DNA of 64,000 bases from an uncultured Gemella sp. (GCF_963529685.1 NZ_CAUSAI010000003.1:7989-71988); one strand, 5' to 3'. Numbered from the stretch's first letter, positions 3,988 to 61,950 are shown. Numbers and translations: made by a program. Notes: generated by a model not told the origin, from the sequence alone.

Positions 3988-4512
3988 TTGGAACTTTTAG
4001 AAATTTTAAACGATTATAAAATAAATTTTTGTAATAGAATGTGTTGTATAGAAACAACATATAAAGAAATGAAATTTATACATGTCTATTTTTCTAAAAC
4101 GGACTTACATCATTTATTAGGTTTACATAAAATATTATCTGGGAATGCAACACAAATAATAAGAGGCATAGAAAATGGAAATATAACTAAGAATCAGATA
4201 AAAAAACATAAAAATTTTGGAATGATACGCTCTAGAATAGATAATTATAAGTTTATTCATGAAGTATTCTTTAAAAAAAATGTTGAATTATGTATTGTAG
4301 AAAAAGATATTACTTCTAATACAATGTTTCTAAATTTAATTATCTACAAGAAAAAAGGGTATGAAATTGTGGTTTTAGGGCTTAAAAAAAGCAATAAGAC
4401 CGATATTTACTATCTTGCTACATTACATAAGACTTATGAAAACAAATATCAAAACGCTCGTAAAACTAAGATTATTAATATAAAATGGTTAGGGCTGACC
4501 CAAAAGCCTTAA
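3988..4512 (+). CDS. hypothetical protein (orphan, 174 aa); the last 7 codons and the stop lie inside repeat copy 1
   Basis: TTG start with AAAGGAA upstream. No family recognised. The C-terminal LGLTQKP-stop is encoded by the repeat beginning at 4492. Confidence 0.55.
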   Translation: MELLEILNDYKINFCNRMCCIETTYKEMKFIHVYFSKTDLHHLLGLHKILSGNATQIIRGIENGNITKNQIKKHKNFGMIRSRIDNYKFIHEVFFKKNVELCIVEKDITSNTMFLNLIIYKKKGYEIVVLGLKKSNKTDIYYLATLHKTYENKYQNARKTKIINIKWLGLTQKP

Positions 4513-4617
4513 AAATCAACAAAGTTCATATAAAAATTTATAGACGCAATGGTTTATTGATATCTAATAAACTATACGGGGATGACTTAACAAAATCATT
4601 ATTTTTGGAGTCTCCCC
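4492..4617 (+). repeat. dispersed modular repeat, copy 1 (L module with an internal deletion plus a shortened H hairpin)
   Basis: GGGCTGACCCAAAAGCCTTAAAAATC...TATAGACGCAATGGTTTATTGATATCTAA...GGGGATGACTTAACAAAATC..TTTTTGGAGTCTCCCC aligns to 15461-15635. It lacks the segment between the two GATATCTAA boxes. Confidence 0.85.
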
Positions 4618-13264: not shown

Positions 13265-14179
13265 ATGAAATTTTTATCATTCAGTTATAACGATAAAGAA
13301 TTATATGGAGTAAAAGTAAAACGTGAAGAAAGTGCATGGGACTTAATTAAAGTACTAGAAGATTTCGATAATAGTGAAAGTATTCCACAAACTTTAAGAG
13401 AAGCAATTGAAGTATATGGTGTTTCTTTTATTGAAAAAGTAAGAAAAGTATTAAAATTAGTTGAGGAAAATAGTAACGCTGACAGTTATAAAGTACCATT
13501 TGATAAAATAATTTGGCGTTCTCCAATCACAAGAACACCTAAAAATATTCTTTGTGTTGGACATAACTATGAAGCACACGTTAGAGAACTTGGCGATGAG
13601 TTAGCGAAGACTCCTAAAGATGTTCTTATCTTTACTAAAGCAACAACAGCTTTAGCTGGTAATAACGAAGTAGTTCCATCTCATAAAAATATTACAGATA
13701 GCTTAGACTTTGGAGGAGAGCTTGCAGTAGTAATAGCAAAACCAGGTAAAAATATTCTTAAACCTTTAGTATTAGATTATATTTTTGGATATACAATTAT
13801 GAATGATATTACAGCTACTGATCTTCAGTATAAACATGGACAATTTTTCTTAGGAAAATCATTAGAAAAATCAGCTGTAGTTGGACCATATCTTGTTACC
13901 AAAGATGAAGTTAGTTCACCAGAATCAATGAATATCGTTACAAAAGTAAATGGTGAGATTAAACAAAATGCTATGACTTCTGAAATGTTATTTAGAGTTG
14001 ATGATGTATTAGCTGAAATTAGTAAAATAGTACCACTAGAAGCTGGAGATATCATTGCAACAGGAACACCTGCAGGGGTAGGATCGGCACAAAATCCACC
14101 AAAATTTTTACAAACAGGTGATGAAATCAAAATCACTGTTGAGGGAATTGGTACATTAACTACTGTAATCGGAGACTAA
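13265..14179 (+). CDS. fumarylacetoacetate hydrolase (FAH) family protein
   Basis: 304 aa with FAH-fold signatures (LDFGGELAVVI, GTPAGVG). RBS GAGGAGG. Extended -10 TGGTATAAT at 13221-13229. Confidence 0.8.
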   Translation: MKFLSFSYNDKELYGVKVKREESAWDLIKVLEDFDNSESIPQTLREAIEVYGVSFIEKVRKVLKLVEENSNADSYKVPFDKIIWRSPITRTPKNILCVGHNYEAHVRELGDELAKTPKDVLIFTKATTALAGNNEVVPSHKNITDSLDFGGELAVVIAKPGKNILKPLVLDYIFGYTIMNDITATDLQYKHGQFFLGKSLEKSAVVGPYLVTKDEVSSPESMNIVTKVNGEIKQNAMTSEMLFRVDDVLAEISKIVPLEAGDIIATGTPAGVGSAQNPPKFLQTGDEIKITVEGIGTLTTVIGD

Positions 14180-14195
14180 GTAGAAAGGAAAAAAA

Positions 14196-15335
14196 ATGGC
14201 AAAAAAATCTAAAGACAAACAAGTTACACATATTGAAAAAGACGATTTAAAAGCACGTCAAGCCGCTATTAACGAAGCCATAAAAATAATCGAAAAAGAA
14301 TATGGTAAAGGGGCTATCATGGATATTTCTTCTGAAAATCCAATTAAAGTAGAAGCAGTATCATCTGGTTCACTTGCAATTGACTCAGCTTTAGGTATCG
14401 GTGGATATCCTAAAGGTCGTATTGTCGAAGTTTATGGACCTGAATCTTCTGGTAAAACAACAATAGCACTTCACGCTATTGCAGAAGTTCAAAAAACAGG
14501 AGGAATAGCTGCGTTTATAGATGCTGAAAATGCTCTTGATATTGAGTATGCTAAAGCCTTAGGTGTTGATTTTACACCTGGTAAATTCTTCCTATCACAA
14601 CCAGATAGCGGAGAGCAGGCACTTGATATTGCCGAAAAGTTAATTTTATCTGGAGCAATTGATATTATTGTTATTGACTCTGTTGCTGCATTAGTTCCAA
14701 AAGCAGAAATTGATGGAGTTATGGGAGCAAACCATATCGGACTGCAAGCTAGACTTATGTCTCAAGCTCTACGTAAATTAACAGGTCAAATAAATAAAGC
14801 AAATACTATCGCATTATTTATTAACCAACTTCGTGAAAAGGTTGGAGTAATGTTCGGAAGCCCTGAAGTAACAACTGGGGGCCGTGCATTAAAATTCTAT
14901 TCTACTGTTCGTATAGATGTTCGTAAAGGTGAAGCTATAAAAGGTGCAGATAGTGAAATTCTTGGTAATAGAACTAAGATTAAAATCGTTAAAAATAAAG
15001 TAGCACCACCTTTCAAAATTGCTGAAGTCGATATTATGTTCGGTGAAGGGATTTCTAAAATTGGAGAAACTCTTGACTTTGCGGTCGATTTAGACATTAT
15101 TAACAAATCAGGTTCATGGTTTTCATATAATGGCGAACGCCTAGGCCAAGGTCGCGAAAATGTTAAGAAAATCTTTGAAGAAAATGAAGAACTTTACAAC
15201 GAAATTTATGGACTTGTAAGGGAAGAAATTATGAACAAAACTGGGAAAAAGAATAGCTCAGTAGATGAAGACGAGTCAAATAATGATATTGATGAACTTG
15301 ATTTAGGGATAGAGACTTTAGGTGAGGTTGAATAA
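14196..15335 (+). CDS. recA: recombinase A
   Basis: Walker [19 protein letters not shown] and the L1/L2 loop regions. Ends in an acidic tail. Confidence 0.97.
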
Positions 15336-15341
15336 TAATAT

Positions 15342-15437
15342 ATGAATAAAAAAGTATTTAAAATTGTATTATGGTTAATGATTTTTTGTATATTAGCAAG
15401 TGGATTTATTTCTGCAATTGCTATGTTCTTGAAATAA
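15342..15437 (+). CDS. possible 31-aa hydrophobic small protein (MNKKVFKIVLWLMIFCILASGFISAIAMFLK)
   Basis: Unlisted sORF 6 nt after the recA stop, with a single predicted TM helix. There is no convincing RBS (GGTGAGG is 14 nt upstream). Confidence 0.2.
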   Translation: MNKKVFKIVLWLMIFCILASGFISAIAMFLK

Positions 15438-15460
15438 ATATACAAAGTAAATAAAAATAA

Positions 15461-15635
15461 GGGCTACCCCAAAAGTCCTAAATTTTAAAAAAGTTTATAT
15501 GAGAACTCATAGACGCAGCGGTTTATTGATATCTAAATTCGAATTATAAAAGCTTTTTAGATATCTAATGAACTTTGCGGGGGTGACTCGACAAAATCTT
15601 GTTTCTTAAGAAATCGTGATTTTTGAGTCACTCCC
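15461..15635 (+). repeat. dispersed modular repeat, copy 2 (full length: L module 15461-15578, H hairpin 15579-15635)
   Basis: Reference copy. The H module GGGGGTGACTCGACAAAATC-loop-GATTTTTGAGTCACTCCC is followed by TTTTATTTTG and is the only terminator-like structure after recA. Confidence 0.9.
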
Positions 15636-15690
15636 TTTTATTTTGAAAATATGATAAAATATTAATAGACAAAGAATAGGAGAAATAGTA

Positions 15691-17874
15691 GTGAATTTTG
15701 TACAAAACATGAACGATAATCAGTTAAAGGCTATACTAAAAACTGAAGGTGCAGTTATGGTAATAGCGGGTGCTGGTAGTGGAAAAACGCGTGTATTAAC
15801 AAACAGAATAGCTTATTTAATTGCAGAAAAAAATATTTTAGAAAGTAATATCCTTGCTATTACATTTACAAATAAGGCTGCTAAAGAAATGAAAGAAAGA
15901 ATCTACGCATTGGTTGGCGAGACTTCAAAATACATTTGGATAAATACCTTTCACTCTATGTGTGTAAGAATCTTGCGACAACACATTGAATTATTAGGTT
16001 ATAATAAGAATTTTACAATTCTAGATACAAGTGAGCAAAAAACAATAATAAAAAATATAGTAAAAAATCTAAATTTATCTGAGGATTCTTATCAACCTGC
16101 AAATGTTTTGAAAATCATATCTAATTCAAAAAATAATATGATTACGGTAAAACAACTTAGAGAACAGTCTCGCTTTGGATTTATGAAAAATGTTGCAGAA
16201 ATATATGCTCATTACCAAAGCTATTTAAAGAAAAATAGTGTTCTTGACTTTGATGATCTTATGCTTAAGACAATAACTTTATTTACAAAACATCCAGAAG
16301 TTCTTGCAATTTATCAAAATAAATTTGAATACATCCATGTTGATGAGTATCAAGATACCAACGTCATTCAATATAAACTAATAAAAATGTTGTCAGAAAT
16401 ACATAAAAATGTCTGTGTAGTTGGTGATGATGATCAAAGTATTTATAGCTGGCGCGGAGCGTGTAGTGATAATATTATAAATTTTGAAAAAGACTACGAT
16501 AATGTTGAATTAATCTTCTTGGATCAAAACTATCGTTCTAATTCAACGATATTAGATGCTGCTAATGCTGTTATTAAAAATAACACAGATAGAAAAGAAA
16601 AAGCATTATGGTCAGAAAATAAAGGTGGTGGCAAGATTTCTGTATATGCTGCATCTAATGATAAAGATGAAACAGATGACATCGCTAGAAAAATTTCGGA
16701 ACTAAAAAAAGAAGGTATTTCATATAAGGATATAGCAATATTATACCGTGCTAACTATCTTTCTCGTCAGATGGAAAATTCATGTTTAGCATTTGGTATT
16801 CCATACAAACTTATAGGTTCCCTTAAGTTCTTACAACGTCAGGAAGTTAGAGATTTACTAGCTTATTTAAATGTAATAGTTAATAGAGATGATGAATTCA
16901 GCCTAAGAAGAATTATTAATGTTCCAAAACGTGGAATTGGTGCTAGTTCAATGGATAAAATCGATAACTATGCTTCACAATATGGTATTACTCTATTTGA
17001 GGCACTTAAAAATATTGAAGATATAGGTGTTTCAAAAAAAATAGTAACTAATATTCATTTATTAATAAATCTTATTGACAAATACTCAGAGATTGACAAA
17101 TACTCAATTGATGAACTTATAATTGGTATTTATAAAGATTCTGGTTATGAAAATATGCTAAAAGAATCAAACGATGCTTATGCTGAGAGTAGAATAGAAA
17201 ATATTTCTGAGTTAGTATCTTCAGCTAAACAGTTTTCTAGTATGAATGATAGTCTTATTGATTTTATTTCTGAGATGTCACTTACTTCTGATGCTGACGA
17301 TGAAAATGAAGATGATTCTGTTGTATTATCTACTATTCATGCTTCTAAAGGTTTAGAATATAAAGTAGTATTCATTATGGGATTAGAAGAAAATCTTTTC
17401 CCTTCTATACGAGATGCTGAGAGTAGCGCTGATGAGAAAAACAAAATGGAAGAAGAACGTCGTCTTGCCTATGTTGCTATAACACGTGCAAAAGAAAAAT
17501 TATTCATGTCTTACGCTAATCGACGAATGCAGTTTGGATCTATTAAGATGAACAAGCGATCTAGATTTTTAGATGAAGTTCCGAATAAACTTATGCACTT
17601 TGAATCTGCTTTTGGCGGAAGTTTTGAATCGACTGAGTCTAGCTTAGAACAGGCTAATAAATTTATAAGCAACTTGAGTCCAAAAATTAAAATAGCAGAT
17701 AAACCAAAGACTTCTGTAAGTACAAATTACGATATTAATGATATTGTTGTTCATAAAAAATTCGGAGAAGGCACTGTCCTTGATATTACCGATGACAATG
17801 TTAAAGTGGAATTTAGTGAAGTTGGTACTAAAACTCTATTAATAGAATATGCTAACCTTACTAGAAAGGAATAA
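15691..17874 (+). CDS. pcrA: ATP-dependent DNA helicase PcrA (UvrD family)
   Basis: GTG start with AGGAG RBS. Motifs AGAGSGKT, DEYQDTN, VGDDDQSIYSWRGA, TIHASKGLE. Followed by ligA. Confidence 0.93.
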   Translation: MNFVQNMNDNQLKAILKTEGAVMVIAGAGSGKTRVLTNRIAYLIAEKNILESNILAITFTNKAAKEMKERIYALVGETSKYIWINTFHSMCVRILRQHIELLGYNKNFTILDTSEQKTIIKNIVKNLNLSEDSYQPANVLKIISNSKNNMITVKQLREQSRFGFMKNVAEIYAHYQSYLKKNSVLDFDDLMLKTITLFTKHPEVLAIYQNKFEYIHVDEYQDTNVIQYKLIKMLSEIHKNVCVVGDDDQSIYSWRGACSDNIINFEKDYDNVELIFLDQNYRSNSTILDAANAVIKNNTDRKEKALWSENKGGGKISVYAASNDKDETDDIARKISELKKEGISYKDIAILYRANYLSRQMENSCLAFGIPYKLIGSLKFLQRQEVRDLLAYLNVIVNRDDEFSLRRIINVPKRGIGASSMDKIDNYASQYGITLFEALKNIEDIGVSKKIVTNIHLLINLIDKYSEIDKYSIDELIIGIYKDSGYENMLKESNDAYAESRIENISELVSSAKQFSSMNDSLIDFISEMSLTSDADDENEDDSVVLSTIHASKGLEYKVVFIMGLEENLFPSIRDAESSADEKNKMEEERRLAYVAITRAKEKLFMSYANRRMQFGSIKMNKRSRFLDEVPNKLMHFESAFGGSFESTESSLEQANKFISNLSPKIKIADKPKTSVSTNYDINDIVVHKKFGEGTVLDITDDNVKVEFSEVGTKTLLIEYANLTRKE

Positions 17875-19871
<1,997 letters not shown>

Positions 19872-19872
<1 letters not shown>

Positions 19873-20147
19873 TGGATAATAAATTACCATATAAAGTATT
19901 TGGTATTGTTATTGTATTCGTATCAATAATTACATTTTTCATTATGAATTACAATTCAGTACCTGTATCATTTATATTTTTCACGGTTAAATTACCGTTA
20001 ACTATATTGTTTTTTGTTTGTTTCTTTATGGGAATAATAGCCGCAAGTTTTTATTGGTATCAAAAATATAAAACTTTGGTGAGGAAATACGAAAGAACTG
20101 AAAAATTATTATTTACAAAAGAAAAATTAGAAGACACAAATGAATAA
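19872..20147 (+). CDS. small membrane protein, LapA/DUF1049-like
   Basis: 91 aa with two TM helices and a charged C-terminal tail. The start overlaps the ligA stop. Confidence 0.5.
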
Positions 20148-20182
20148 TAGGATAGAAATTAGTATAGAAATGAGGTGAAAAA

Positions 20183-22444
20183 ATGGGAATAAAGTATAAT
20201 TGGATTTATCCAAATTATGATGAGAATTTTATAAAAGAACTTGAGTCTTATAATATTTCTAAAAATATATCAAAAATCCTTAATGCTAGAAATATTACAG
20301 ATATGTCATCGGTAAAAAAATATTTTTCTGATGAATATGAAGAAGGTTACGATCCATTTTTAATGTTCGATATGCAGAAAGCTGTGGATAGAATTAATGA
20401 AGCTATTGAAAATGAGGAAAAAATTCTTGTTTATGGAGATTATGATGCCGATGGTATCACATCAACAGTTTTATTGGTTGAAACATTACTATCCCTAGGA
20501 GCAAATGTTTCTTCGTATATTCCGAATCGATTCGATGAAGGATATGGTCCTAATAAAGATGCATTTACTAAAATTATTGATTCTGGTATAAGTTTAATTA
20601 TAACTGTTGATAATGGCATTGCAGGAGTTGAAGAAGTTGATTTAGCGAACGACCTTGGCTGTGATGTTATTATAACAGATCACCATAAGATTCAAGATAC
20701 AATACCAAATGCATACGCTATTATTCATCCTGAGCATCCTGAGGGAAATTATCCTTTCAAAAAATTAGCTGGAGTGGGTGTCGCGTTTAAACTTGCTCAT
20801 GCATTGTTAGAAATTTTTCCAGATTTCCTGCTAGATTTAGTTGCTATTGGAACGATAGCTGATATGGTATCTCTTACTGATGAGAATAGAATATTTGTAA
20901 AACAAGGTTTAGAATTATTAAATGAAGATCCTCGTATTGGTCTTAAAATGCTTCTTGAATTATCTAGTATAGATACTAAAATAGATGAGCAAACAATAGG
21001 TTTTTATATAGCACCTAAATTAAATTCAATAGGTAGAATGGATAGTGCAAAATTAGGATTAGCTTTCTTAATGGCTGAGGATGCTACTAATGCTCGTAAT
21101 CTTGCTGAACAAATTGAAAAATTTAATATAGAACGCAAGCAAGTTACAGAAGAGATAGTTAAAGATGTAATAACTACTATTGAAAGCTCTGAAAAAAAAG
21201 ATAAGAATGTTATTATGATATCAGGAGATTACCACGAGGGAGTATTGGGGATTGTCGCTTCTAACATAGTTGAGAGATATCAAAAACCTGTATTAATAAT
21301 GAATTATAAAGACGGTATATTAAAAGGGTCAGCGCGTAGTATTTTCGACTTTAACATCTATACAGCGATGAATAAGATATCTGATTTATTTGTTGCATTT
21401 GGAGGACATACATTAGCTGCAGGGTTTTCTTTTGAAGAAAAAAACTTTGATAAAATCGAAGACTTTCTCCATAAGGAATATGAAGAATACAAACAAAATA
21501 ATGAATTAAAATCAACAAAAAATATAGATATCGTCACTTCTTTAGAAGAGATTAGTTATCAGTTTCTTAGTTCTTTAGAAGTATTAAAACCTTACGGTAT
21601 GGATTTTGAAAAACCTACTATTTTACTAGAGAATGCAATGGTTCTAAATAAAACTTATTTTGGTTCTGAGAAACAATACTTAAGATTAACAATTGCAGAT
21701 GAAGTAGGTAATTTAGAGTGTATTAGTTTTAAAGATAACAAGGCATTTGATAAAGTAGAAAAAAATGATATAATCGACTTATTATGTACTCTAGACAAAA
21801 ATAATTTCAATGGACGTACTAAACTACAAGCACATATAGTTGATATTGAAATAAAAGAATTCTTATTTGAAGATTTAAGATTTATAAACTATGATATTAG
21901 CAAAATAGATAGTAATTGTTTAAAACTTTCAAAAACAATCGATGATAATGCTAATAATTTCTATTTATACAAAAATATTGATAATATAGGTGAAAATTTT
22001 GATTATATTTATTTATTAGATATACCAAATAGTATGGACTATATAGAAAAAATAGTTGAATGCAAACCTAAAAAGATTTATTTAGTCTGTGAGGAAAAAC
22101 ATATACTTTCGGAAAAATATCAAATTGATAAAGATAGACTAATTAAGTTGTTTAATATTATTTTATCGACTACGAATAAACAAATTAACATTGCCCAACA
22201 ACTAGATAAGTTATTAGTAGCATTAAACACAAATGTTGATAGTCTAAAAATAATGATTCAAATTTTTCAAGAATTAAACTTAGTTAACTTTGAAAATAAT
22301 ACTATAATTTTAAATAAAAATTATAAAACTGTCGATCTAAAACAATCGGCAAGCTTTGTTAGAATGGAGAGTATATTTGAAACAGAAAAGATACTCTTAA
22401 AAGAGAGCATAGCTAACATTAATAAATTATTTAAAAATAAATAA
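20183..22444 (+). CDS. recJ: single-stranded-DNA-specific exonuclease RecJ
   Basis: DHH motifs (YGDYDADGITS, VDNGI, ITDHH) and a DHHA1 domain (GGHTLAAG). Confidence 0.9.
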   Translation: MGIKYNWIYPNYDENFIKELESYNISKNISKILNARNITDMSSVKKYFSDEYEEGYDPFLMFDMQKAVDRINEAIENEEKILVYGDYDADGITSTVLLVETLLSLGANVSSYIPNRFDEGYGPNKDAFTKIIDSGISLIITVDNGIAGVEEVDLANDLGCDVIITDHHKIQDTIPNAYAIIHPEHPEGNYPFKKLAGVGVAFKLAHALLEIFPDFLLDLVAIGTIADMVSLTDENRIFVKQGLELLNEDPRIGLKMLLELSSIDTKIDEQTIGFYIAPKLNSIGRMDSAKLGLAFLMAEDATNARNLAEQIEKFNIERKQVTEEIVKDVITTIESSEKKDKNVIMISGDYHEGVLGIVASNIVERYQKPVLIMNYKDGILKGSARSIFDFNIYTAMNKISDLFVAFGGHTLAAGFSFEEKNFDKIEDFLHKEYEEYKQNNELKSTKNIDIVTSLEEISYQFLSSLEVLKPYGMDFEKPTILLENAMVLNKTYFGSEKQYLRLTIADEVGNLECISFKDNKAFDKVEKNDIIDLLCTLDKNNFNGRTKLQAHIVDIEIKEFLFEDLRFINYDISKIDSNCLKLSKTIDDNANNFYLYKNIDNIGENFDYIYLLDIPNSMDYIEKIVECKPKKIYLVCEEKHILSEKYQIDKDRLIKLFNIILSTTNKQINIAQQLDKLLVALNTNVDSLKIMIQIFQELNLVNFENNTIILNKNYKTVDLKQSASFVRMESIFETEKILLKESIANINKLFKNK

Positions 22445-33608: not shown

Positions 33609-34145
33609 ATGAGATACTTACTTTTACTTCGTGGAATAAATGTTGGTGGGAAGAATAAAGTATCCATGGCTGAATTGAAAGATTTGATTTCACGTTTAGG
33701 ATACGAAAATGTTATTACTTATATTAACAGCGGCAATATAATATTTGATGCTAATGATAATAAAGAAACTGTTAGAGAAAAGATATCACATATGTTAGAG
33801 ACTTTCCCTTTTTCTATAAATAAAGTAATACTGACACAAGAAGAATATTTGGACGAGATATCTAATTTACCTGAATGGTGGTCAGAGGAACTTTTTAGAA
33901 GAGATGTTCTTTTTTATAGTGATGCAGTTAATTATTCTGTAATGAAAGAGCGAATAAAGATGATGCCATTAAACGACGAAATGGTTCACTTTGGAAAAAG
34001 AGCTGTCTTTTGGGATAAATACAATGAGAAAAACTATTTATCAACTTCATATCATAAATTACTTATGAAAGAGAGTTTTTATAAATCTATTACTATAAGG
34101 AATGCTAGAACATTTGAAAAAATTTCAGAATTGCTTAAACATTAA
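33609..34145 (+). CDS. DUF1697 family protein
   Basis: N-terminal LLLRGINVGGKNKVSMAELK signature. 178 aa. Confidence 0.75.
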   Translation: MRYLLLLRGINVGGKNKVSMAELKDLISRLGYENVITYINSGNIIFDANDNKETVREKISHMLETFPFSINKVILTQEEYLDEISNLPEWWSEELFRRDVLFYSDAVNYSVMKERIKMMPLNDEMVHFGKRAVFWDKYNEKNYLSTSYHKLLMKESFYKSITIRNARTFEKISELLKH

Positions 34146-34232
34146 TTTCTAAATATATTAAAAGTTGTATATCTTTACTTAAGTTGGCTAATAATGATAT
34201 AATTACCTAGTGAAAAAATTAAGGAGAATATA

Positions 34233-35633
34233 ATGAAATTAGATAAATTATTAATTAGCTTAGGATTAGTTGTCTATTGTTCTTTAGCAGTTTTTTTAGG
34301 ATTTTACTCTTATAAATTGTTATTAGTTTTTATTGGTATTAGTGCTCTGATATTTCTTATTACAAAGTTGCATTTTGAGCCATTCTTATCAATATTAATA
34401 GTTGCAATTATTCTAGGTTTATTTTTAGGACTTTCCCCTAATACTTTAATCGATTCTATAGAGAAGGGGACCGGATCACTACTAGGACATCTTTCTTTGA
34501 TTTTAGGATTGGGAGCAATGTTCGGTCGAATATTAGAAGAATTGGGTGCTGTTGAAATAACAGCTAAAAAGATGATAAGTACATTTGGAATCAAAAGAAT
34601 ACAATTAGGGTTACTTATTGCTGGAATGTGTATTAGTTTTTCTTTATTTTTCGATGTTGCTTTTATATTGGTTATACCTATTATATTAGCTGTAGCAAAG
34701 GAGCTTAAAATTGATAAAATTTACTTGGCATTACCAGCAAGTATCGGTGTCTTAACTATTCATGCGTTATTTCCACCACATCCAAGTCCTAGTATCATAA
34801 CTAAGACATTTCATCTTAATATGGCAGAAGTATTTTTCTATGGATTAATAGTTGCAATTCCTACAGCAATAATTGGTGGTCTATTATTAACTAATTCAAA
34901 ACTAGTTAAAACAATACCTATCACAAAAAATTCAACTAACACTATAAATGTGCTTAAAATTGAAAATCAGATTATGAGTTCATCCTTTGCAATACTATTA
35001 ATGCTGCTACCTGTTATACTAATTACAATTCCTACAATTTTTTTAGGTATTCCAAATTTACCAACAAATATTAAAGGAATATTATCAATTATAAGTAATC
35101 CGGTTACTGCATTAATAATAAGTTTATTAATTGCTATAATTAAATTAATGCAAGTTAAAAGCCTAAGAGCTAGTAGTGTTGTTCCATTGTTAAGTCAATC
35201 AATTAAGACAATTGCTGTTGTTCTTTTAATTAATGGAGCTGCTGGAGGTCTTAAACAAGTCCTAGTAGACTCAAAGGTTACAGATGAAATTGTTAGTTTA
35301 ACAAATGGTTTGAATCTATCTCCAATAGTGATAAGTTTTATAGTAGCAGCAATACTTAGAATATCACTTGGTAGTGCAACTATCGCCGCTATAACAACAC
35401 TTGCCATAGTAGAGCCACTTGTTCCAACCATTAGTTATTCACCGGTATTTATAATGCTAAGTATCACTGCTGGAAGTATGTTTTGCTCACATGTAAATGA
35501 TCCTGGGTTTTGGTTGTTTAAACAGTACTTAAATCTGGATTTTAAAACGACATTTAAGACATGGACACTAGGAACAACAGTTTCAGCACTTATTGCTTTT
35601 GTTATAATTTTAATAATAACGTCGCTTACATAA
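34233..35633 (+). CDS. GntP-family (gluconate/organic anion:H+) permease
   Basis: 466 aa with about 12 TM segments in a GntP-like layout (GLGAMFGRILEE..). Confidence 0.75.
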   Translation: MKLDKLLISLGLVVYCSLAVFLGFYSYKLLLVFIGISALIFLITKLHFEPFLSILIVAIILGLFLGLSPNTLIDSIEKGTGSLLGHLSLILGLGAMFGRILEELGAVEITAKKMISTFGIKRIQLGLLIAGMCISFSLFFDVAFILVIPIILAVAKELKIDKIYLALPASIGVLTIHALFPPHPSPSIITKTFHLNMAEVFFYGLIVAIPTAIIGGLLLTNSKLVKTIPITKNSTNTINVLKIENQIMSSSFAILLMLLPVILITIPTIFLGIPNLPTNIKGILSIISNPVTALIISLLIAIIKLMQVKSLRASSVVPLLSQSIKTIAVVLLINGAAGGLKQVLVDSKVTDEIVSLTNGLNLSPIVISFIVAAILRISLGSATIAAITTLAIVEPLVPTISYSPVFIMLSITAGSMFCSHVNDPGFWLFKQYLNLDFKTTFKTWTLGTTVSALIAFVIILIITSLT

Positions 35634-35662
35634 ATATTTTTTAAATAATTAGTGTTTTTCGC

Positions 35663-35691
35663 TTGCTATTTATATTTAGTTATGTTATATT
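35663..35691 (+). promoter_or_regulatory. sigma-A promoter for rpmB (TTGCTA-17-TATATT with an upstream TG)
   Basis: TTGCTA at 35663-35668 and TGTTATATT at 35683-35691. Confidence 0.45.
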
Positions 35692-35750
35692 ATTACTTGT
35701 GTATGTAGTAAATGTTATGAATAAACTATTTCCAAAAGGAGGATTAATTC

Positions 35751-35939
35751 ATGGCAAAAGTTTGTTACGTAACTGGACGTAAAGCTCGTTCAGGAAATAC
35801 TCGTTCACACGCGATGAACGCAAATAAAAGAAAATTCAAAGCTAATCTACAAAAAGTAACAATTTTAGTAGACGGACAACCTAAAAAAGTTTGGGTTTCT
35901 GCTAGAGCTTTAAAATCTGGAAAAGTTGAGCGTGTATAA
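35751..35939 (+). CDS. rpmB: 50S ribosomal protein L28
   Basis: [27 protein letters not shown]. 62 aa. Confidence 0.95.
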
Positions 35940-35955
35940 TTAAGCGATAAACTTT

Positions 35956-35986
35956 AAGCTATCTAAGGAAACTTAGGTAGCTTTTT
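35956..35986 (+). terminator. intrinsic terminator after rpmB
   Basis: AAGCTATCTAAG pairs with CTTAGGTAGCTT, then TTT. Confidence 0.7.
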
Positions 35987-36149
35987 ACATTATATTCATT
36001 AAAATAATAGAAAAAAACTTCAAAATCAGCTAAATATACTAAATTTTATATAAATAGCCATTTAAATCAATTCTGAGCATTAAAATAAGTTTTTGGAGTA
36101 ATTATATTATTTTAAATTTTAGAAGGCTCATACGACGTTTAAATAGGTC

Positions 36150-36200
36150 AGATTTTTGAAAAAGTATAAAATCATAAAAGAATTCTAAATTTCTAAAATT
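36150..36200. other. candidate dif (difSL-like) Xer recombination site
   Basis: GATTTTTGAAAAAGTATAAAATCATAAAAGAATTCTAAATTTCTAAAAT contains segments resembling my recollection of the streptococcal difSL (ATTTTTCCGAAAAACTATAATTTTCTTGAAA). It lies about 200 bp upstream of xerS. Confidence 0.3.
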
Positions 36201-36393
36201 AGGATAAAAAATATAAATAAAATATTGCACTAAAATAGAATAGTACATTTCAGATAAAAATAATTTCTCTTTTAAATATACAAGGGGGGTTAATGATATT
36301 GAAAGAAGTATATAAATATGATATAATATATTTGTTCGTATAATACATATTATATGTATAATTTATAAATTCAAGGAGAATGTAGTAATACCA

Positions 36394-37440
36394 ATGAATC
36401 AACGTGATTATTATAAACAAAAAATTAACAAAATACTTCCAGAATTTCCTGACTACATAGAAGATTTTATTGACACATATTATGACAATTTATCTCCATT
36501 AACTTTGCATAGATATTTAGAAACCTATAAGAACTTTTTAAATTGGACTATCAGAGAAACTATATCTGATGCTGAACTTATTAAAGATGTCAGCCTTTCT
36601 ACTCTTGAAAATATTTCTAAAAAAGAAATGGAAAGTTATTTCAAGAGTCTATCTCGTGAGCAAGTTAATGGTAAATACCGTAGTCAAACTACTATAAATA
36701 ACTATAAAGCTGCTATGAGATCACTCTACAAGTTTCTTACTGTAACAAGTGAAACCGAGCAAGGACGTGCTTATTTTGAACGAAATGTAATGCTTAAAAT
36801 ACCTATTAATCGTGTTAAAGAAACATTATCTTCAAGATCAAAGAAAATATCAGAAAAGATATTCCTAGATTCGCAAGATGAAGAATTTTTACAGTATGTT
36901 GAATTTGAATATGAACAAACATTATCTAATCATGGAAAATCATTTTTTCTTCGAGATAAAGCAAGAGATTTAGCTATATTAACTCTATTTCTAAAAAGCG
37001 GTATCCGTGTCAACGAACTTGCTAATTTAAAAATAAAAGACATAGATTTTTTAAATAGTGAAATTAATGTAGTTAGAAAAGGGAATAAAGTTGATACAGT
37101 CATAATTACTAAATCTGCTCTTGATAGACTTAATGAATACATTACTTCCCTACCTTTTACACTTAATAGAGAAGATTACGTATTTATTAGTAAAAACAAA
37201 ACGGGACTGTCGATAAGAGCCATTCAGAAATTGGTAATGAAATATACAGATGCATTTAATGTTCCAATGTCACCACACAAATTAAGACACAGTTACGGGA
37301 CAAAATTAGCTCTTAAAACAAATGGTAATATACCAATAATTATGACGCAAATGGGACATTCTAACAGTGATACATCAATGCTATACATTAATGAATCAAA
37401 AAAGATTATTAAGCAAAATATTAATAAACTTGATGATTAG
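36394..37440 (+). CDS. xerS: XerS-type tyrosine site-specific recombinase
   Basis: Blocks shared with streptococcal XerS as I recall it: LSTLENISKKEMESY, YFERNVMLK, EFLQYVEFEYEQTLS. Catalytic R..HKLRHS..GH..Y residues are present. 348 aa. Confidence 0.8.
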   Translation: MNQRDYYKQKINKILPEFPDYIEDFIDTYYDNLSPLTLHRYLETYKNFLNWTIRETISDAELIKDVSLSTLENISKKEMESYFKSLSREQVNGKYRSQTTINNYKAAMRSLYKFLTVTSETEQGRAYFERNVMLKIPINRVKETLSSRSKKISEKIFLDSQDEEFLQYVEFEYEQTLSNHGKSFFLRDKARDLAILTLFLKSGIRVNELANLKIKDIDFLNSEINVVRKGNKVDTVIITKSALDRLNEYITSLPFTLNREDYVFISKNKTGLSIRAIQKLVMKYTDAFNVPMSPHKLRHSYGTKLALKTNGNIPIIMTQMGHSNSDTSMLYINESKKIIKQNINKLDD

Positions 37441-37458
37441 TAATAAAGTAAAATAAAA

Positions 37459-37494
37459 ATATAGTTTACATATATTTAATTATGTAAACTATAT
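37459..37494. terminator. 13-14 bp hairpin at the convergence point of xerS and grpB (GTTTAC-N14-GTAAAC core)
   Basis: ATATAGTTTACAT pairs with ATGTAAACTATAT. The right arm overlaps the last codons and stop of grpB. A T-run follows on the + strand. Confidence 0.55.
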
Positions 37495-38015
37495 TTTTCT
37501 ATAGTATTTCTTATAAATTTCGTTTTACCAGCAGTATATCCCTCTCTATCGTACCTGTATGTTAGTTCTAAATCTAATTTTAATCTTTCATATTGTTTTG
37601 CTATTTTTGGATTTTTTATTAAAATATCTCTAAACTTAACTTCCTCAATATCACCTTTTCTTCTTACATGAAGATGGTAGACTTTATCTTGAAAACCATC
37701 AATCCCATATCCTTTGACTAGAAAAGCTCTATCGTCTTCTTTCCAACGTAGTTCCCATTCTACATTCAAAATATCCATTATACTATCAAAATCATTACTT
37801 TCATTTATTTCTAAAATTATATCTATTATGTCCTTTGAATATATATTTGGAATAGCTGTACTACCTATGTGATATAAACTTATATTGTATTTATTTAGTT
37901 TATCCAGTAAATTTGTCTTTTCATCTTCATACAAGTTTGTCCATTCGCTATTATGTTTAACAAGTTTTATAGGGAATTTTCTTTTAAAATCCTCATCTTT
38001 TAATATATTATCCAT
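37476..38015 (-). CDS. GrpB-family protein
   Basis: HIGSTAIPNIYSKDIIDI signature. 179 aa. Confidence 0.85.
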   Translation of the reverse strand: MDNILKDEDFKRKFPIKLVKHNSEWTNLYEDEKTNLLDKLNKYNISLYHIGSTAIPNIYSKDIIDIILEINESNDFDSIMDILNVEWELRWKEDDRAFLVKGYGIDGFQDKVYHLHVRRKGDIEEVKFRDILIKNPKIAKQYERLKLDLELTYRYDREGYTAGKTKFIRNTIEKYSLHN

Positions 38016-38074: not shown

Positions 38075-38644
38075 TTATTTAAATACATGTAATGAATTCT
38101 TAAAGTACTCTATACCTGATAGAATTGTTAGAATCACTGAAATCCATAATAGTATATAGTCTAATTGGAAACCAATTGTGTTAAATATAGGATTTCCTAA
38201 TAATATCAAGATAATAGCAATAAGTTGGCTAATAGTTTTAAGTTTTCCTAAAATACCGGCAGGTATCACTTCTCCTCTTTCAACTGCAAGTAACCTAAGA
38301 CCTGTAACAGCAAATTCTCTTGCAATTACAACAACTACCATCCAGCTATGCATTAAACCTAATTCAACCATAACTATGAAGGCACTTCCTACTAAAAGTT
38401 TATCGGCCAAAGGATCTAAGAATTTCCCCATATTAGTTACTAAATTATACTTTCTTGCCAAATATCCATCTATAAAATCAGTCAATGAAGCAAAGATAAA
38501 TATTAAAGCAGCTATGAAAATATTTATAGTTATTTCTCTTCCTCCAAAAATAGAAATACTTCCTCCCATGTCTACAAGTAAAAAGATTATAAATACAGGT
38601 ATTAATATTGTTCTAAATAAAGTTATTTTATTTGGTAGATTCAT
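38075..38644 (-). CDS. pgsA: CDP-diacylglycerol--glycerol-3-phosphate 3-phosphatidyltransferase
   Basis: CDP-alcohol phosphatidyltransferase motif [24 protein letters not shown]. Confidence 0.93.
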
Positions 38645-38731: not shown

Positions 38732-38904
38732 GGGAGTGACTAGACAAAATCGATTTCTTCGAAATCACGATTTTTGAGTCACTCCCGCAAAAGTTTATTA
38801 GATATCTAAAAAGCTTTTATAAAGAGTATTTAGATATCAATAAGCCACTGCGTCCATGAGTTATCATATATACTTTTTTAAAATTCAGGACTTTTGCGTC
38901 CGCT
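38732..38904 (-). repeat. dispersed modular repeat, copy 3 (L module inverted; H hairpin 38732-38786 in the opposite relative orientation to the other copies)
   Basis: The reverse complement of 38787-38904 aligns to the L module of copy 2. The hairpin reads GGGAGTGACTAGACAAAATC...GATTTTTGAGTCACTCCC on the + strand, the same orientation as in the + copies. Confidence 0.88.
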
Positions 38905-38938: not shown

Positions 38939-39868
38939 TTATGCGCCTGTTGGATTAGGCGTTGCTGCTGGGGCAGGAGTTGCAGTAGGATTTGGTGTTT
39001 CTGCTGCTGGGGCAGGTGCTGGTGCAGCTGGTGTTTCTGCTGGCGCAGGGGTTGGCGTTGGATTTGCCGGTGTAGCTGGTGTTTCTGCTGGCGCAGGGGT
39101 TGGTGCTGGATTTGAGTTACTATTCGTATTCGTATTACTTGTATTCGTATTAGTATTCGTATTACTGTTATTAGAATTAGAATTACTATTATTGCTATTA
39201 GTATTAGTATTTGCATTATCTCGTCTATTACTATTTGTAGCATTAGAATTACTATTGTTGTTATTTGCATTAGCAACTGGTGCATTATTATCAGTTCTAG
39301 CACGATTAATATTCTGCTTAGTTTCTTGAGAAACTTGACTTCCAACATTAGTTAAAGCTTTTGTTAATAATTCTAAAATCTCATTTAAATCTCTTTGTTT
39401 TTCAAATAATACATTTTTATTTTCATTGATTAAAGATTGTAAATCAGATAATTCTTTTTTAGCTTTCTCAACTTTTTCATTATCTTTTTTATCTGTATCA
39501 TTTAATGTTAACTTATTAATTTTATCTTTCAAATCATTACTAAGTTTTTCTCGCATTTCTTTAACTGTCTTTTCAAAATCATTTCTTACTTTATCTTTAT
39601 TTTCAGCTGCAATTTCATCTTTATAACCTTGTAATTCTTTAAGTACATTTAGTTTTTTATTAAAATCATTTTCTTTATCAAACTTACTTTTAGCTTCACT
39701 AATAACTTTTTCAAATTTCGATTTACTCTTATTCATTATAAATTTATTTGGTGAAATTTGATATTTTTGGTATGCATATGCTGATAAACCAGCAACTGCA
39801 ATTAAAACTACTGATAGTAGTGCACTTAATAATTTTTTATTCTTTTTCAATTTATTTACCTCTTTCAT
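38939..39868 (-). CDS. secreted or membrane-anchored coiled-coil protein with an Asn/Ser/Thr-rich and Pro/Ala/Thr-rich C-terminus
   Basis: N-terminal hydrophobic segment LLSALLSVVLIAVAGLSAYA, a K/E-rich helical region, then NSN/NTN runs and PAPAETPA repeats. A likelier start is TTG 39850, with AAAGAGGT 7 nt upstream. Confidence 0.6.
   Translation of the reverse strand: MKEVNKLKKNKKLLSALLSVVLIAVAGLSAYAYQKYQISPNKFIMNKSKSKFEKVISEAKSKFDKENDFNKKLNVLKELQGYKDEIAAENKDKVRNDFEKTVKEMREKLSNDLKDKINKLTLNDTDKKDNEKVEKAKKELSDLQSLINENKNVLFEKQRDLNEILELLTKALTNVGSQVSQETKQNINRARTDNNAPVANANNNNSNSNATNSNRRDNANTNTNSNNSNSNSNNSNTNTNTNTSNTNTNSNSNPAPTPAPAETPATPANPTPTPAPAETPAAPAPAPAAETPNPTATPAPAATPNPTGA
39026..39103. repeat. 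30-bp perfect direct repeat at 48-bp period inside the Pro-rich coding region
   Basis: AGCTGGTGTTTCTGCTGGCGCAGGGGTTGG occurs at 39026-39055 and 39074-39103. This is a locally GC-rich segment. Confidence 0.85.
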
Positions 39869-46036: not shown

Positions 46037-46189
46037 AGGTAGTGACTTATATATCGTGTTTTCGAAGAAATCGATGTCGAGTCACACCTCAGAAAATTTA
46101 TTAGATATCTAAAAACCTTTTTTTGAAAAAATTAGATATCAATAAATCACGGTATCTATATGTTCTTAATATATTTTTGGGGATAACCC
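46037..46189 (-). repeat. dispersed modular repeat, copy 4 (degenerate)
   Basis: AGGTAGTGACTTATATATCG...CGATGTCGAGTCACACCT hairpin, then TTATTAGATATCTAAAAA..TTAGATATCAATAAATCACGGTATCTATATG...GGGGATAACCC. Confidence 0.8.
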
Positions 46190-52505: not shown

Positions 52506-53255
52506 TTACTTAAATTCGCTAAAATAAGCTACACAACTAACAAAATATAGCGGAGCTGTTTCAGCTCTTAATATTCTTTTACCTAATCCTATCACACTAA
52601 ATTTATTCTCAGTTAAAATATTAATCTCATTTTCTGATAGACCACCTTCACTTCCAAAAACTGCTATTACATCTTTATTATTTAACTCCGAATTTAATAG
52701 ATTTCTAAGATTAATATTATCTTCATTTACTGATTCTTTTTCATAAGCCACCACTTTATGATCATATTTCTCAGCAAAATTCACTAAATCTCTTAAACTA
52801 TCAACATATGTAATATCTGGTATAAGATTTCGTTTTGATTGTTCTGAGGCTTCTTTAATAATTTTTGACCATCTATTAAGTTTAGAATCTACTTTATCCT
52901 TCTTGATTTTAGCAATGTTTCTTTCTGAATTAAATAGAACTATATTACTTATTCCAAGTTCTGTTAGTTTTTGAATTAAGTATTCTATCTTATCATTTTT
53001 TAATGGCGGTATAGCTACTGTGATTTTTGTTGGAAGCTCATTACTACCGCTTACCTGCTCGTATGGAACAACTAATACCTTATCTACATTATTATCTATA
53101 ATTGTACAAATATATTTAATTTCATTTTTAAATACAACATACACTTTATCATTATTTTGTTTTCTCATAATTCTTACAATATGATTACTATCTTCTTTTG
53201 ATAATTCATATGTTGATTCAACATTTAACTCTTCATTTAAAAAATACTGTTGCAT
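52506..53255 (-). CDS. rsmE: 16S rRNA (uracil1498-N3)-methyltransferase
   Basis: MQQYF start, a PUA-like N-terminus, and SEGG plus LGKRILRAETA near the C-terminus. Confidence 0.88.
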   Translation of the reverse strand: MQQYFLNEELNVESTYELSKEDSNHIVRIMRKQNNDKVYVVFKNEIKYICTIIDNNVDKVLVVPYEQVSGSNELPTKITVAIPPLKNDKIEYLIQKLTELGISNIVLFNSERNIAKIKKDKVDSKLNRWSKIIKEASEQSKRNLIPDITYVDSLRDLVNFAEKYDHKVVAYEKESVNEDNINLRNLLNSELNNKDVIAVFGSEGGLSENEINILTENKFSVIGLGKRILRAETAPLYFVSCVAYFSEFK

Positions 53256-53341
53256 AATTTCTCCTAAGTTTTTATCTTACAATTAATTTTACCTTATTCT
53301 TTATTTTTTATCAATAGTACCATTTTAAATATAAAAAGAGC

Positions 53342-53398
53342 GGGAGTGACTCTAAAATCTCAATTTCATAGAAATCGATTTTGTTGAGTCAGCACCGC
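53342..53398 (-). repeat. dispersed modular repeat, copy 5 (solo H hairpin), positioned as the mltG terminator
   Basis: GGGAGTGACTCTAAAATC-loop-GATTTTGTTGAGTCAGCACCGC begins 15 nt after the mltG stop. GCTCTTTTTAT follows on the - strand. Confidence 0.8.
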
Positions 53399-53412
53399 TC
53401 ATTAATATTTTA

Positions 53413-54543
53413 TTAACTTCCTGAAGGAATATATCCTTCAATATGTTCCTTAGCTAATTTTTCATGTTCGTCATATGTTTTAGAAAAGTACGCCTTACCA
53501 CCTTTAGTAGCGTGTAGGAAATATAAATAATCTGTATTTTCGGCATTATTTAGTGCTTCATAAGAAACAGATCCAATAGACGAAATAGGTCCTGGAGGTA
53601 ATCCTACCACCACATACGTATTATATGGAGAATTTAAACTTAATTCTGCTTGTGTTGGCGCACCAGTAAGTTTATCAGCCGCATAGTTAGCCGAAGGATC
53701 AGTTTGTAATTTCATACCTTGAGCCAACCTATTTAGAAATACACTCGCAATAAGTTTGTTTTCATCAGACTTGGTAGATTCTTTTTCAAGTATACTTGCC
53801 ATTGTCATATAATCATGAATAGAAATTTGTTTCTCTTGTCCACTAATTTTCCATAAACGACTATTCTTTTTGTACAAAGGAACTACTTTGTCATTTGTTA
53901 ATTTAACCATCTTAGTAATTAATCCCTCGACAGTCTCATCATCAGTAAGATTATAAATTGCTGGATATAAATATCCCTCTAACGCATATTTAATATCTTT
54001 TCCGTAAACTTCATCTGTTATAAGCTCTGGAAATTGTTTTTGAAGTTTTTTTATAAATTCCGCATCATTAACCTTAGCCAAAAATTCTTCTGAACTTAGA
54101 TTTGTTTTTTCAAGATTTTTAGCAATTTTTAATATGCTGTCACCTTCTATCAAAGCAAAACTATTTCTTGACGTTGCTTTATCTTTTGTTCCCAATTCTT
54201 GTATAATCTGCGATAAATTCATACTTTGTTTCAAATTAAATTTACCTACATAAAATGAAGTATTAGGTGATAATCTAGCGTACAATTTAAATACTTCTTC
54301 ATTGCGTATTAGACCTTTTGCCTTTAATTCTTGAGCAATTTTAGCGCTACCGTAATTTTCTTTTATTTCAACAGTAACATCTTTATTGTTGCTTTTATCT
54401 ACTGGAGTTGTCATGTAATAGAATCCTGATAAAACAACAATACCTAAAACAACGATGATAGTTAATAACATAGGAATAATAGATTTTTTTCTTCTATTTT
54501 TTTGCCTAAGTTCTCTACTTCTTCTTATTTTATCTTCTCTCAT
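53413..54543 (-). CDS. mltG: endolytic murein transglycosylase MltG (YceG-like)
   Basis: N-terminal TM segment and the YceG domain with ILEKES, NRL, SPYNTY and GLPPGPI. Confidence 0.9.
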   Translation of the reverse strand: MREDKIRRSRELRQKNRRKKSIIPMLLTIIVVLGIVVLSGFYYMTTPVDKSNNKDVTVEIKENYGSAKIAQELKAKGLIRNEEVFKLYARLSPNTSFYVGKFNLKQSMNLSQIIQELGTKDKATSRNSFALIEGDSILKIAKNLEKTNLSSEEFLAKVNDAEFIKKLQKQFPELITDEVYGKDIKYALEGYLYPAIYNLTDDETVEGLITKMVKLTNDKVVPLYKKNSRLWKISGQEKQISIHDYMTMASILEKESTKSDENKLIASVFLNRLAQGMKLQTDPSANYAADKLTGAPTQAELSLNSPYNTYVVVGLPPGPISSIGSVSYEALNNAENTDYLYFLHATKGGKAYFSKTYDEHEKLAKEHIEGYIPSGS

Positions 54544-59225: not shown

Positions 59226-59398
59226 GGGAGTGACTCAAAAATCGCTCTTTCTAGAAACAAGATTTTGTCTAGTCATCCCACACAGTTTGTTAGATATCTA
59301 AAAATCTTTTATAAAGTGAATTTAAATATCAATAAACCACTGCGTATATGAATTTTTATATAAACCTTGTTAAAATTTAGGACTTTTGGGTCAGACCC
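59226..59398 (-). repeat. dispersed modular repeat, copy 6 (full length), in the divergent nif3/recD2 intergenic region
   Basis: The reverse complement aligns end to end with 15461-15635 (GGGTCTGACCCAAAAGTCCTAAATTTT...GATTTTTGAGTCACTCCC). Confidence 0.9.
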
Positions 59399-61839: not shown

Positions 61840-61950
61840 GGGGGCTGACTCAAAAATCCTAAATTTTAAAAAAGTGTATATGATAATTCATAGACGCAGT
61901 GGTTTATTGATAGCTAAATTCACTAAAATCACGATTTTTGAGTCACTCCC
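61840..61950 (+). repeat. dispersed modular repeat, copy 7 (internally deleted; ends form 18-nt terminal inverted repeats)
   Basis: GGGGGCTGACTCAAAAATCCTAAATTTT...CATAGACGCAGTGGTTTATTGATAGCTAAATTC..AAATCACGATTTTTGAGTCACTCCC. Begins 14 nt after the recD2 stop. Confidence 0.85.

Follow-up and report, generated by a model that had tools for sequence, protein, structure and literature searches.

What is the repeat that lies between the genes for RecA (14196-15335) and PcrA/UvrD (15691-17874) in this Gemella genome, and by what route have it and its relatives reached their positions? The DNA in question is a stretch of 64,000 nt, hereafter the window, with a G+C content of 26-33%, and the host is an oral bacterium. 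To our knowledge, small dispersed repeats are common in bacteria, and how most of them move (BOX, SPRITE and REP-like sequences among them) is unexplained. A preliminary description of the window had listed seven related segments and read them as a dispersed repeat composed of two modules, an upstream part L and a terminal hairpin H.

Copies in the window and anatomy of the unit

A blastn self-search with 15461-15635 as query matched 59226-59397 (-) at 85%, 38732-38896 (-) at 84% and four partial copies, with E values from 1e-45 to 1e-9. A family HMM built on 112 copies matched the window at seven places (E values from 6e-52 to 3.6e-11) and gave no eighth copy there, so that the seven segments first described are real and lie where they had been placed (Table 1). 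The terminal 15-mer, with up to 3 mismatches allowed, occurred 10 times in the window against 1.24 expected, and the reference copy folded with z = -6.5 relative to shuffles. The neighbours of the window copies are housekeeping genes (recA/pcrA, ybeY/spoU, mltG/rsmE and NIF3/recD2): 46037-46189 is located between the SpoU-methylase and YbeY genes, and 38732-38904 has a Pro/Ala-rich ORF (38939-39868) on one side and a CDP-alcohol phosphatidyltransferase gene (38075-38644) on the other.

Table 1. Parts of the reference copy, and the copies of the repeat in the window
Feature	Positions	Strand	Observations
5' terminal repeat, imperfect direct copy of the H 5' arm	15461-15479	+	consensus GGGGCTGACCCAAAAGTCC, against H arm GGGGGTGACTCGACAAAATC
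Small hairpin TATGAG-AA-CTCATA	15498-15511	+	helix 2; 87% of cells paired
Central M hairpin, stem of about 21 bp	15515-15578	+	helices 3-5; 93-98% of cells paired
H module, 57-nt hairpin	15579-15635	+	helices 6-7; 94-95% of cells paired
T-rich flank TTTTATTTTG	15636-15645	+	read from sequence
Reference copy, full-length L + H	15461-15635	+	HMM 2-174, E 6e-52; recA-pcrA spacer
Full-length unit, H inverted relative to L	38732-38904	-	HMM 3-174, E 1e-39
Full-length unit	59226-59398	-	HMM 1-174, E 1e-43; NIF3/RecD2 divergent spacer
Internally deleted unit, L positions 1-84 fused to the H 3' arm	61840-61950	+	HMM 1-84, E 1.5e-18
Internally deleted, degenerate unit	4492-4617	+	HMM 2-155, E 2.6e-17
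Degenerate unit with no recognisable 5' end	46037-46189	-	HMM 41-174 at 46038-46168, E 9e-20; blastn 72%
Solo H hairpin, followed by GCTCTTTTT	53342-53398	-	HMM 115-174, E 4e-11; downstream of mltG/yceG

Two observations concern the window apart from the repeat. GC skew flips from about +0.2 to about -0.2 at 34000-38000, and near 36 kb gene orientation changes from + to -; the replication terminus therefore probably lies within the window. No match to a Firmicute dif consensus was found at the skew switch. Between recA and the repeat, a 31-codon ORF (MNKKVFKIVLWLMIFCILASGFISAIAMFLK) at 15343-15437 looks like a small hydrophobic peptide gene.

The family unit is 174 bp long (consensus GGGGCTGACCCAAAAGTCCTAAATTTTAACAAAGTTTATATGAGAACTCATAGACGCAGTGGTTTATTGATATCTAAATTCGCTTTATAAAAGCTTTTTAGATATCTAATAAACTGTGCGGGGGTGACTCGACAAAATCGATTTCTACGAAATCACGATTTTTGAGTCACTCCC), has the ends GGGGCTGAC...GTCACTCCC, and comprises a variable 5' end, a small hairpin, a central hairpin M and the terminal hairpin H, usually followed by a T-rich flank. 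Each arm of M holds a 12-nt palindrome, TTGATATCTAA (15526-15536) in one and TTAGATATCTAA (15557-15568) in the other; the two are near-identical, contain GATATC and have centres about 31 nt apart, and the apex of M is a small stem, GCTTT/AAAGC. M is the best conserved region, most of its columns being conserved at 90% or more, a figure that is partly inflated because both collection scans used M-region patterns. H is made up of an outer stem of 11 bp (GGGGGTGACTC/GAGTCACTCCC), an internal loop and, further in, two stems of 6 bp, with at least one double change in 14 of its 23 pairs. The palindromic loop TTTCTTAAGAAA first reported for H is present in the sequence and proved to be a minority variant, the consensus apex being GATTTC-TAC-GAAATC. 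H and the T-rich flank of the reference copy together look like an intrinsic terminator.

The 5' terminal repeat is the most variable part of the family, with column conservation of only 60-70%. The ends nevertheless form terminal inverted repeats (TIRs), as had been described: 16 of 18 consensus positions are complementary, and end-to-end pairing holds in 78% of alignment cells, compared with 28-55% when the partners are slid. The further proposal, that the 3' arm has two alternative partners, stands as far as the sequence goes, but covariation is absent from the long-range pairing (187 of 500 shuffles score equally well), and since copies lie in both orientations a terminator/antiterminator switch is unsupported.

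Across all helices in the alignment of 112 full copies, 93.9% of cells pair, against 30-49% with partners slid, and 23 pairs are changed on both sides, against 9.0 +/- 2.0 in shuffles. Single changes that break Watson-Crick pairs gave G.U 162 times and A.C 188 times. G.U is tolerated in the RNA of a given strand and A.C only on the opposite strand; the near-equal frequencies therefore indicate no selection for pairing on one strand.

Distribution, context and decay of the family

An exact 19-mer scan of species-representative genomes returned more than 117 stretches, nearly all of them from Gemella among the matches listed (G. haemolysans, Gemella sp. and uncultured Gemella MAGs); the few matches outside the genus are single chance matches. 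A 26-mer scan of metagenome contigs, which carry no organism label, returned more than 120 stretches among the matches listed, and many of these contigs end inside the repeat, as expected of a high-copy element. The family thereby breaks Gemella assemblies and should be masked or modelled in annotation. Loci were collected through exact M-hairpin words, which favours young copies.

The collection comprised 371 non-overlapping copies in 2.06 Mb of Gemella DNA from 248 sources (genomes and metagenomes). Full-length copies numbered 247 and solo H units 51; the remainder were 15 5' parts and 58 partials of other kinds. Among the first 129 full copies, 128 sequences were distinct. Non-seed copies occurred about once per 9-15 kb of locus, a density that, extrapolated, suggests about 100-200 copies per genome. 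The family is genus-wide and dispersed, which disposes of the local or regional duplication that had been considered as an alternative, and the 51 solo H units and the common internally deleted copies bear out the modular L + H reading. The only Streptococcus-labelled entries among the matches listed were three loci (L028, L066 and L091) of one assembly, PNGU01 ('Streptococcus sp. UMB1385'); in L028 at least, the flanks are about 92% identical to Gemella loci, and this assembly may be mislabelled or mixed.

The repeat had been called intergenic, and with mechanically called ORFs none of 129 full copies lay inside an ORF of at least 70 aa. In the window, the deleted copy at 4492-4617 departs from this rule by overlapping the end of ORF 3988-4512, whose last 6 codons and stop come from the first 21 nt of the copy. 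This ORF matches Pfam PBECR4 (phage Barnase/EndoU/RelE-like nuclease domain), and its original 3' end may have been replaced when the copy inserted.

Orientation was scored for the 206 full copies whose loci measure 6 kb or more. In spacers between tandem genes, 88 copies were sense and 41 antisense (p = 4e-5), and 30 of the 206 lay in convergent and 25 in divergent spacers; 6 of the 7 window copies are co-oriented with genes, but the bias across the family is just 2:1. Orientation with the GC-skew-positive strand was seen in 122 of the 206 copies (59%), which the gene-strand bias accounts for. Family-wide, T makes up 53-63% of positions +1 to +5 and A 44-62% of positions -2 to -8; the T-tract is missing at some copies, such as 59226 and 61840. 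The genes downstream of copies share no function.

In the 5' 45 nt, orthologous copies are 90% identical and paralogs 74.5%, and orthologs have site-specific 5' variants in common, from which it follows that copies are inherited vertically after insertion. The solo H at 53342-53398 is kept in 10 of 10 related strains (L118-L127), and the exact terminal 15-mer of the deleted copy at 61840-61950 is at 61936-61950; this deleted form recurs in L120, L121, L125 and L127, with a full copy at the orthologous site in L070. The copy at 59226 was found in L120 alone and was missing from nine other strains with an identical DHFR protein. It was considered as a clean recent insertion and rejected: the strains that have no copy carry a different haplotype of the whole spacer, and the site is uninformative for that reason.

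Three orthologous sites hold the element in opposite orientations, with boundaries that coincide or differ by a few nt at two of them; at the third, each boundary is shifted by about 7 nt. Subfamilies can be told apart by linked diagnostic variants, an ATTT/ACAA/GTTCAT type and a TAGA/AAAA/GTTTAC type, and the two occupants at each of these sites belong to different subfamilies; they are therefore independent insertions at the same target and not in-place inversions. By these variants, the copies appear to derive from several source lineages. The nearest non-orthologous copy was 93% identical in the median and 98.3% at most. As no identical paralog pair was seen, present-day activity is unproven, and the family has not undergone a recent burst. 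Orthologous copies are 90-95% identical and their flanks 78-90%, the flank measure including indels and the sample being biased, which leaves room for some constraint on the element.

Decay has left recognisable forms. Solo H units often have a chimeric 5' arm, GCTGAC of the terminal repeat followed by TCGAC or TCAAC of the H arm, which is expected from deletion of L between two direct repeats. The solo H at 53342 has such an arm (GGTGCTGACTCAAC, GCTGAC followed by TCAAC), and the orthologous recA-pcrA site in L193 holds a solo H hairpin only, its arm again a TIR/H chimera. The family has many other internal deletions. The full-length copy at 38732-38904, confirmed as a copy, carries its H (38732-38786) inverted relative to L, with a reverse score of 49 against a forward score of 29. 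It is the single such case among 132 copies and is a rare in-place hairpin inversion; systematic flip-flop of H, of the kind known at hairpin telomeres, was rejected on this count.

Three further observations were made in the sampled loci. In L214, at 8326, a full element interrupts, at its apex, an H-like hairpin that is older and degenerate (GGGAGCGACTCGAAAA...TTTCGAGT.C.TCCCC; compared with L002 1318 and L025 3176), and the family can therefore nest in its own hairpins. H-like hairpins, each following CTCTATAAAATTAGCTAGCGAGTGA, recur at a spacing of about 370 nt in L214 (10573-11317), L176 (3342-4059), L246 (926-1638) and L025 (720-1136), a pattern suggestive of a longer unit, terminated by an H-type hairpin, that is repeated in tandem. 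Beside the solo H downstream of mltG, two strains that are close relatives have additional genes: L118 carries an integrase, a PemK-like toxin and HTH regulators (13508-20492) and L121 extra small ORFs (13508-15520); this spacer, orthologous to window positions 53255-53413, appears to be an integration hotspot.

Replacement of hairpin targets and its possible mechanisms

The flanks of filled copies were compared with orthologous element-free loci. This gave 30 clean comparisons at about 20-25 sites, a sample biased by the fact that empty sites are detectable only within a few kb of another copy. Homology stops no more than 3 nt from both element ends, reaching exactly GGGG... at one end and ...CTCCC at the other. 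No target-site duplication was found, the direct-repeat scores of the flanks being no higher than those of permuted pairs for k = 2-9. Instead, the empty allele carries 14-52 nt that are missing from the filled allele (median 24, IQR 23-27), the boundaries of the lost segment resting on local alignments. Junction microhomology amounts to 0-3 nt, a TA rule is not evident in the flanks (G occupies position -1 in 66% of copies, and T or A position +1), and no conserved short motif was found beside the target.

In most cases the upper part of a terminator-like hairpin is what has been lost. The flanks often retain the base of the old stem; sometimes one arm and the loop are gone, or the whole hairpin, and the loss can be off-centre with respect to the hairpin. 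The folding energy of empty alleles is -0.20 kcal/mol per nt, compared with -0.10 in random windows of the same loci (p = 2e-5), and their right flank is T-rich (56% T). Many empty alleles are textbook terminators, those of L092 and L139 among them, with GGTTGATTTG...CAAATCAACC then TTTTCT and ACTTGATTCTAG...CTAGAATCAAG then TTTTTT, respectively. At the site of window copy 38732, L107 has a small terminator, GGGATAA..TTATCC plus TGTATTTTTT, where the window has the element and the same T-tract. A second window site in keeping with this is recA-pcrA, with its solo H in L193. Many right flanks have no initial T run, and one insertion, in L036, interrupts a coding sequence free of A/T tracts: the amino-acid permease ORF is intact in L047, where 25 nt represent the lost segment. 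The lost segment is also homologous between element-free species (L095, L097), which shows it to be ancestral sequence and not a footprint.

Two other origins for the exchanged sequence were rejected. A few lost segments resemble the H apex by eye, but alignments to the consensus were no better than those of shuffles (p 0.1-1.0), so that no relation to the element is detectable. Nor does the variable 5' end come from the target, its similarity being 6.0 to its own site and 6.18 to other sites.

We consider it likely that the family is a Gemella-specific non-autonomous mobile repeat that lands on hairpins, replaces about 24 nt and substitutes its own terminator-like hairpin. Landing sites would be short hairpin-forming sequences, mostly intrinsic terminators downstream of genes, and about two helical turns of the target, usually the apex or the whole hairpin, would be replaced with no duplication. 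The element would join in either orientation, and its H would take the place of the old hairpin beside the surviving T-tract. H with this T-tract would terminate transcription, to judge from the resemblance to intrinsic terminators, and in antisense copies the paired element ends, together with the complement of the A-rich 5' flank, could terminate as well. Termination would then probably be preserved after insertion. This would make insertions near-neutral and would explain both the abundance of copies in core spacers and the 2:1 sense bias. Copies would afterwards decay through internal deletions of several kinds, one of which, extending from the 5' terminal repeat to the corresponding arm of H, would leave a solo H.

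As to how the exchange is made, a trans-acting, structure-recognising enzyme would cleave the DNA on either side of the hairpin and insert the element. It is possible, though less likely than not, that this amounts to a structure-directed 'cut-and-replace', a mode undescribed in bacteria, in which some two helical turns of a hairpin or cruciform are removed and the element takes their place, so that terminator hairpins are swapped. The spread of target loss, 14-52 nt, is less tidy than that of a fixed-ruler enzyme. The preliminary description had noted no conserved ORF and no transposase nearby, and this held in the roughly 2 Mb sampled, which represent little of each genome. None of the copies was split or carried an ORF, and no ORF was framed by an additional pair of element ends; the ORFs seen in several contexts encoded a phosphoesterase, an oxidoreductase and similar proteins, with no transposase among them; and no RAYT gene was seen. 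The terminal repeat may presumably be likened to IS6- or IS3-type ends, a resemblance to which we give no weight.

The variable extent of the loss would sit well with recombination. Hairpins would break or stall (for example through SbcCD-type cleavage), and the gap would be repaired by copying an element from another terminator through A-tract/T-tract microhomology or template switching, making the element a gene-conversion 'terminator allele'. Such repair would lose the hairpin and duplicate nothing, the A-rich left and T-rich right flanks could supply microhomology symmetric enough for both orientations, and the absence of a transposase from the sampled DNA would be expected. However, the junctions are crisp at the element's own ends and carry no donor flank, junction microhomology is as short as stated above, and neither the many right flanks that have no T run nor the coding insertion offers the tracts required; we regard this route as unlikely.

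A single-stranded DNA element of the REP/RAYT or IS200/IS605-derived (PATE) type, in which a Y1 HUH transposase swaps hairpins, would likewise leave no target duplication and would account for hairpin-rich ends, hairpin targets and solo hairpin units. REP-associated transposases cut both sides of REP hairpins in vitro, which lends this reading some appeal. Elements of this type are usually strongly strand-biased, whereas the skew-positive orientation of the Gemella copies shows no excess over the gene-strand bias, and a strand-specific mechanism was rejected on that ground. Given also that no conserved motif adjoins the target and that no Y1 transposase gene turned up in a non-exhaustive search of the 2 Mb sampled, we think this explanation distinctly improbable.

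That the copies are host-selected structured RNAs, either terminator/antiterminator cis-regulatory leaders or small RNAs, is very improbable: the strongly supported stems, a 5' end able to pair with the 3' arm in competition with the 5' arm of H, and the higher identity of orthologous copies than of their flanks are in its favour, but copies take either orientation and are found between convergent, divergent and tandem genes alike, the G.U and A.C counts and the lack of covariation in the alternative helix led us to reject RNA-level selection on them, no promoter is evident inside the unit from the consensus, Rfam gave no match, and the downstream genes have no common function. A riboswitch or attenuator would have a fixed orientation upstream of the gene it regulates and covarying alternative helices, and the copies lie in all four spacer types.

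The replacement reading rests on a footprint that is clear and repeatable, with crisp ends, no duplication, loss of about 24 nt of hairpin and sites that are hit again. It limits the mechanisms to be considered and is open to test in an oral commensal found in nature. Enzymatic replacement would point to a structure-targeting recombinase or transposase, possibly useful for engineering; replacement driven by repair would show genome-wide overwriting of terminators.

Relation to described repeat families

The family is apparently undescribed, in line with the earlier remark that its sequence was not recognised as any named family. Rfam gave nothing at gathering score in the whole window, with only noise up to E = 10 and a best sub-threshold score of 22 bits against a gathering score of 56. 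A blastn search against plasmids and phages gave no match, and the single IMG/VR match was a copy lying at one end of a Gemella prophage contig. A full-text literature search on Gemella repeats, intergenic sequences and MITEs, and on the terminal 11-mer, returned nothing relevant. The family is a small non-autonomous bacterial repeat, set apart from SPRITE, BOX and RUP by their descriptions. It is MITE-like in the broad sense only, being 174 bp long and gene-less, with imperfect TIRs around two long hairpins; a classical MITE has TIRs, as here, and also a target-site duplication, and because that defining duplication is absent the family is not a classical MITE. A partner IS with matching ends in the same host, likewise expected of a MITE, did not turn up in the roughly 2 Mb sampled.

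REP, BIME and REPIN sequences consist of 20-40 nt units with a conserved tetranucleotide and often act as terminators or mRNA stabilisers. Like the Gemella family, they are hairpins downstream of genes, single or composite, that make no target duplication. They differ from it in unit size, the Gemella unit measuring 174 nt (57 nt for solo H), and the latter also has a non-palindromic L and a weak strand bias.

The architecture recalls BOX, RUP and Correia elements, as the preliminary description had remarked, and the likeness does not extend to insertion. Correia/NEMIS elements of Neisseria and RUP of pneumococcus insert at TA with duplication (PMC2229807, PMC3049150, in the portions consulted), and RUP has a partner, IS630-Spn1 (PMC3049150, likewise). 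They share with the Gemella family a small size, TIRs, tight folding, intergenic position and co-transcription with neighbours. Unlike them, the Gemella family shows neither insertion at TA nor TA duplication, has no partner that was found, and deletes about 24 nt.

YPAL/RU-2 of Yersinia, of about 168 bp, has termini with no TA motif, makes 3-26 bp target duplications and is not A+T-rich (PMC2229807, in the portions consulted). It resembles the Gemella family in size and in its dyad-symmetry targets, but it duplicates 3-26 bp where the Gemella family loses 14-52 nt. The passages searched for SPRITE (PMC3049150), BOX, YPAL/RU-2, Correia and RUP report no target replacement.

BOX of S. pneumoniae has three module types and a variable number of boxB modules (PMC3049150, in the part read). 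It shares with the Gemella family modular combinations, mutually pairing ends, the lack of genes and a mobilising enzyme yet to be identified; the Gemella family has two module types and varies by deletion, and BOX, set apart by description, has no recognisable sequence resemblance to it. SPRITE of pneumococcus has a long stem, of 18 bp, with a U-rich tract behind it, and the same partly consulted source presents it as thought to be co-opted as a terminator (PMC3049150). Both SPRITE and the Gemella family are dispersed repeats of oral or nasopharyngeal Firmicutes, and the Gemella family may share the enrichment of SPRITE just downstream of genes. The features here that may be of SPRITE type are the 57-nt H, the flank of 53-63% T and the 88/41 ratio of sense to antisense copies, yet divergent spacers hold 25 of 206 copies. 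SPRITE consists of one hairpin only; the Gemella unit has in addition the 118-nt L, which contains a second long hairpin, and TIRs. By analogy, SPRITE may be regarded as the closest functional counterpart of the Gemella family and BOX as the closest in modularity.
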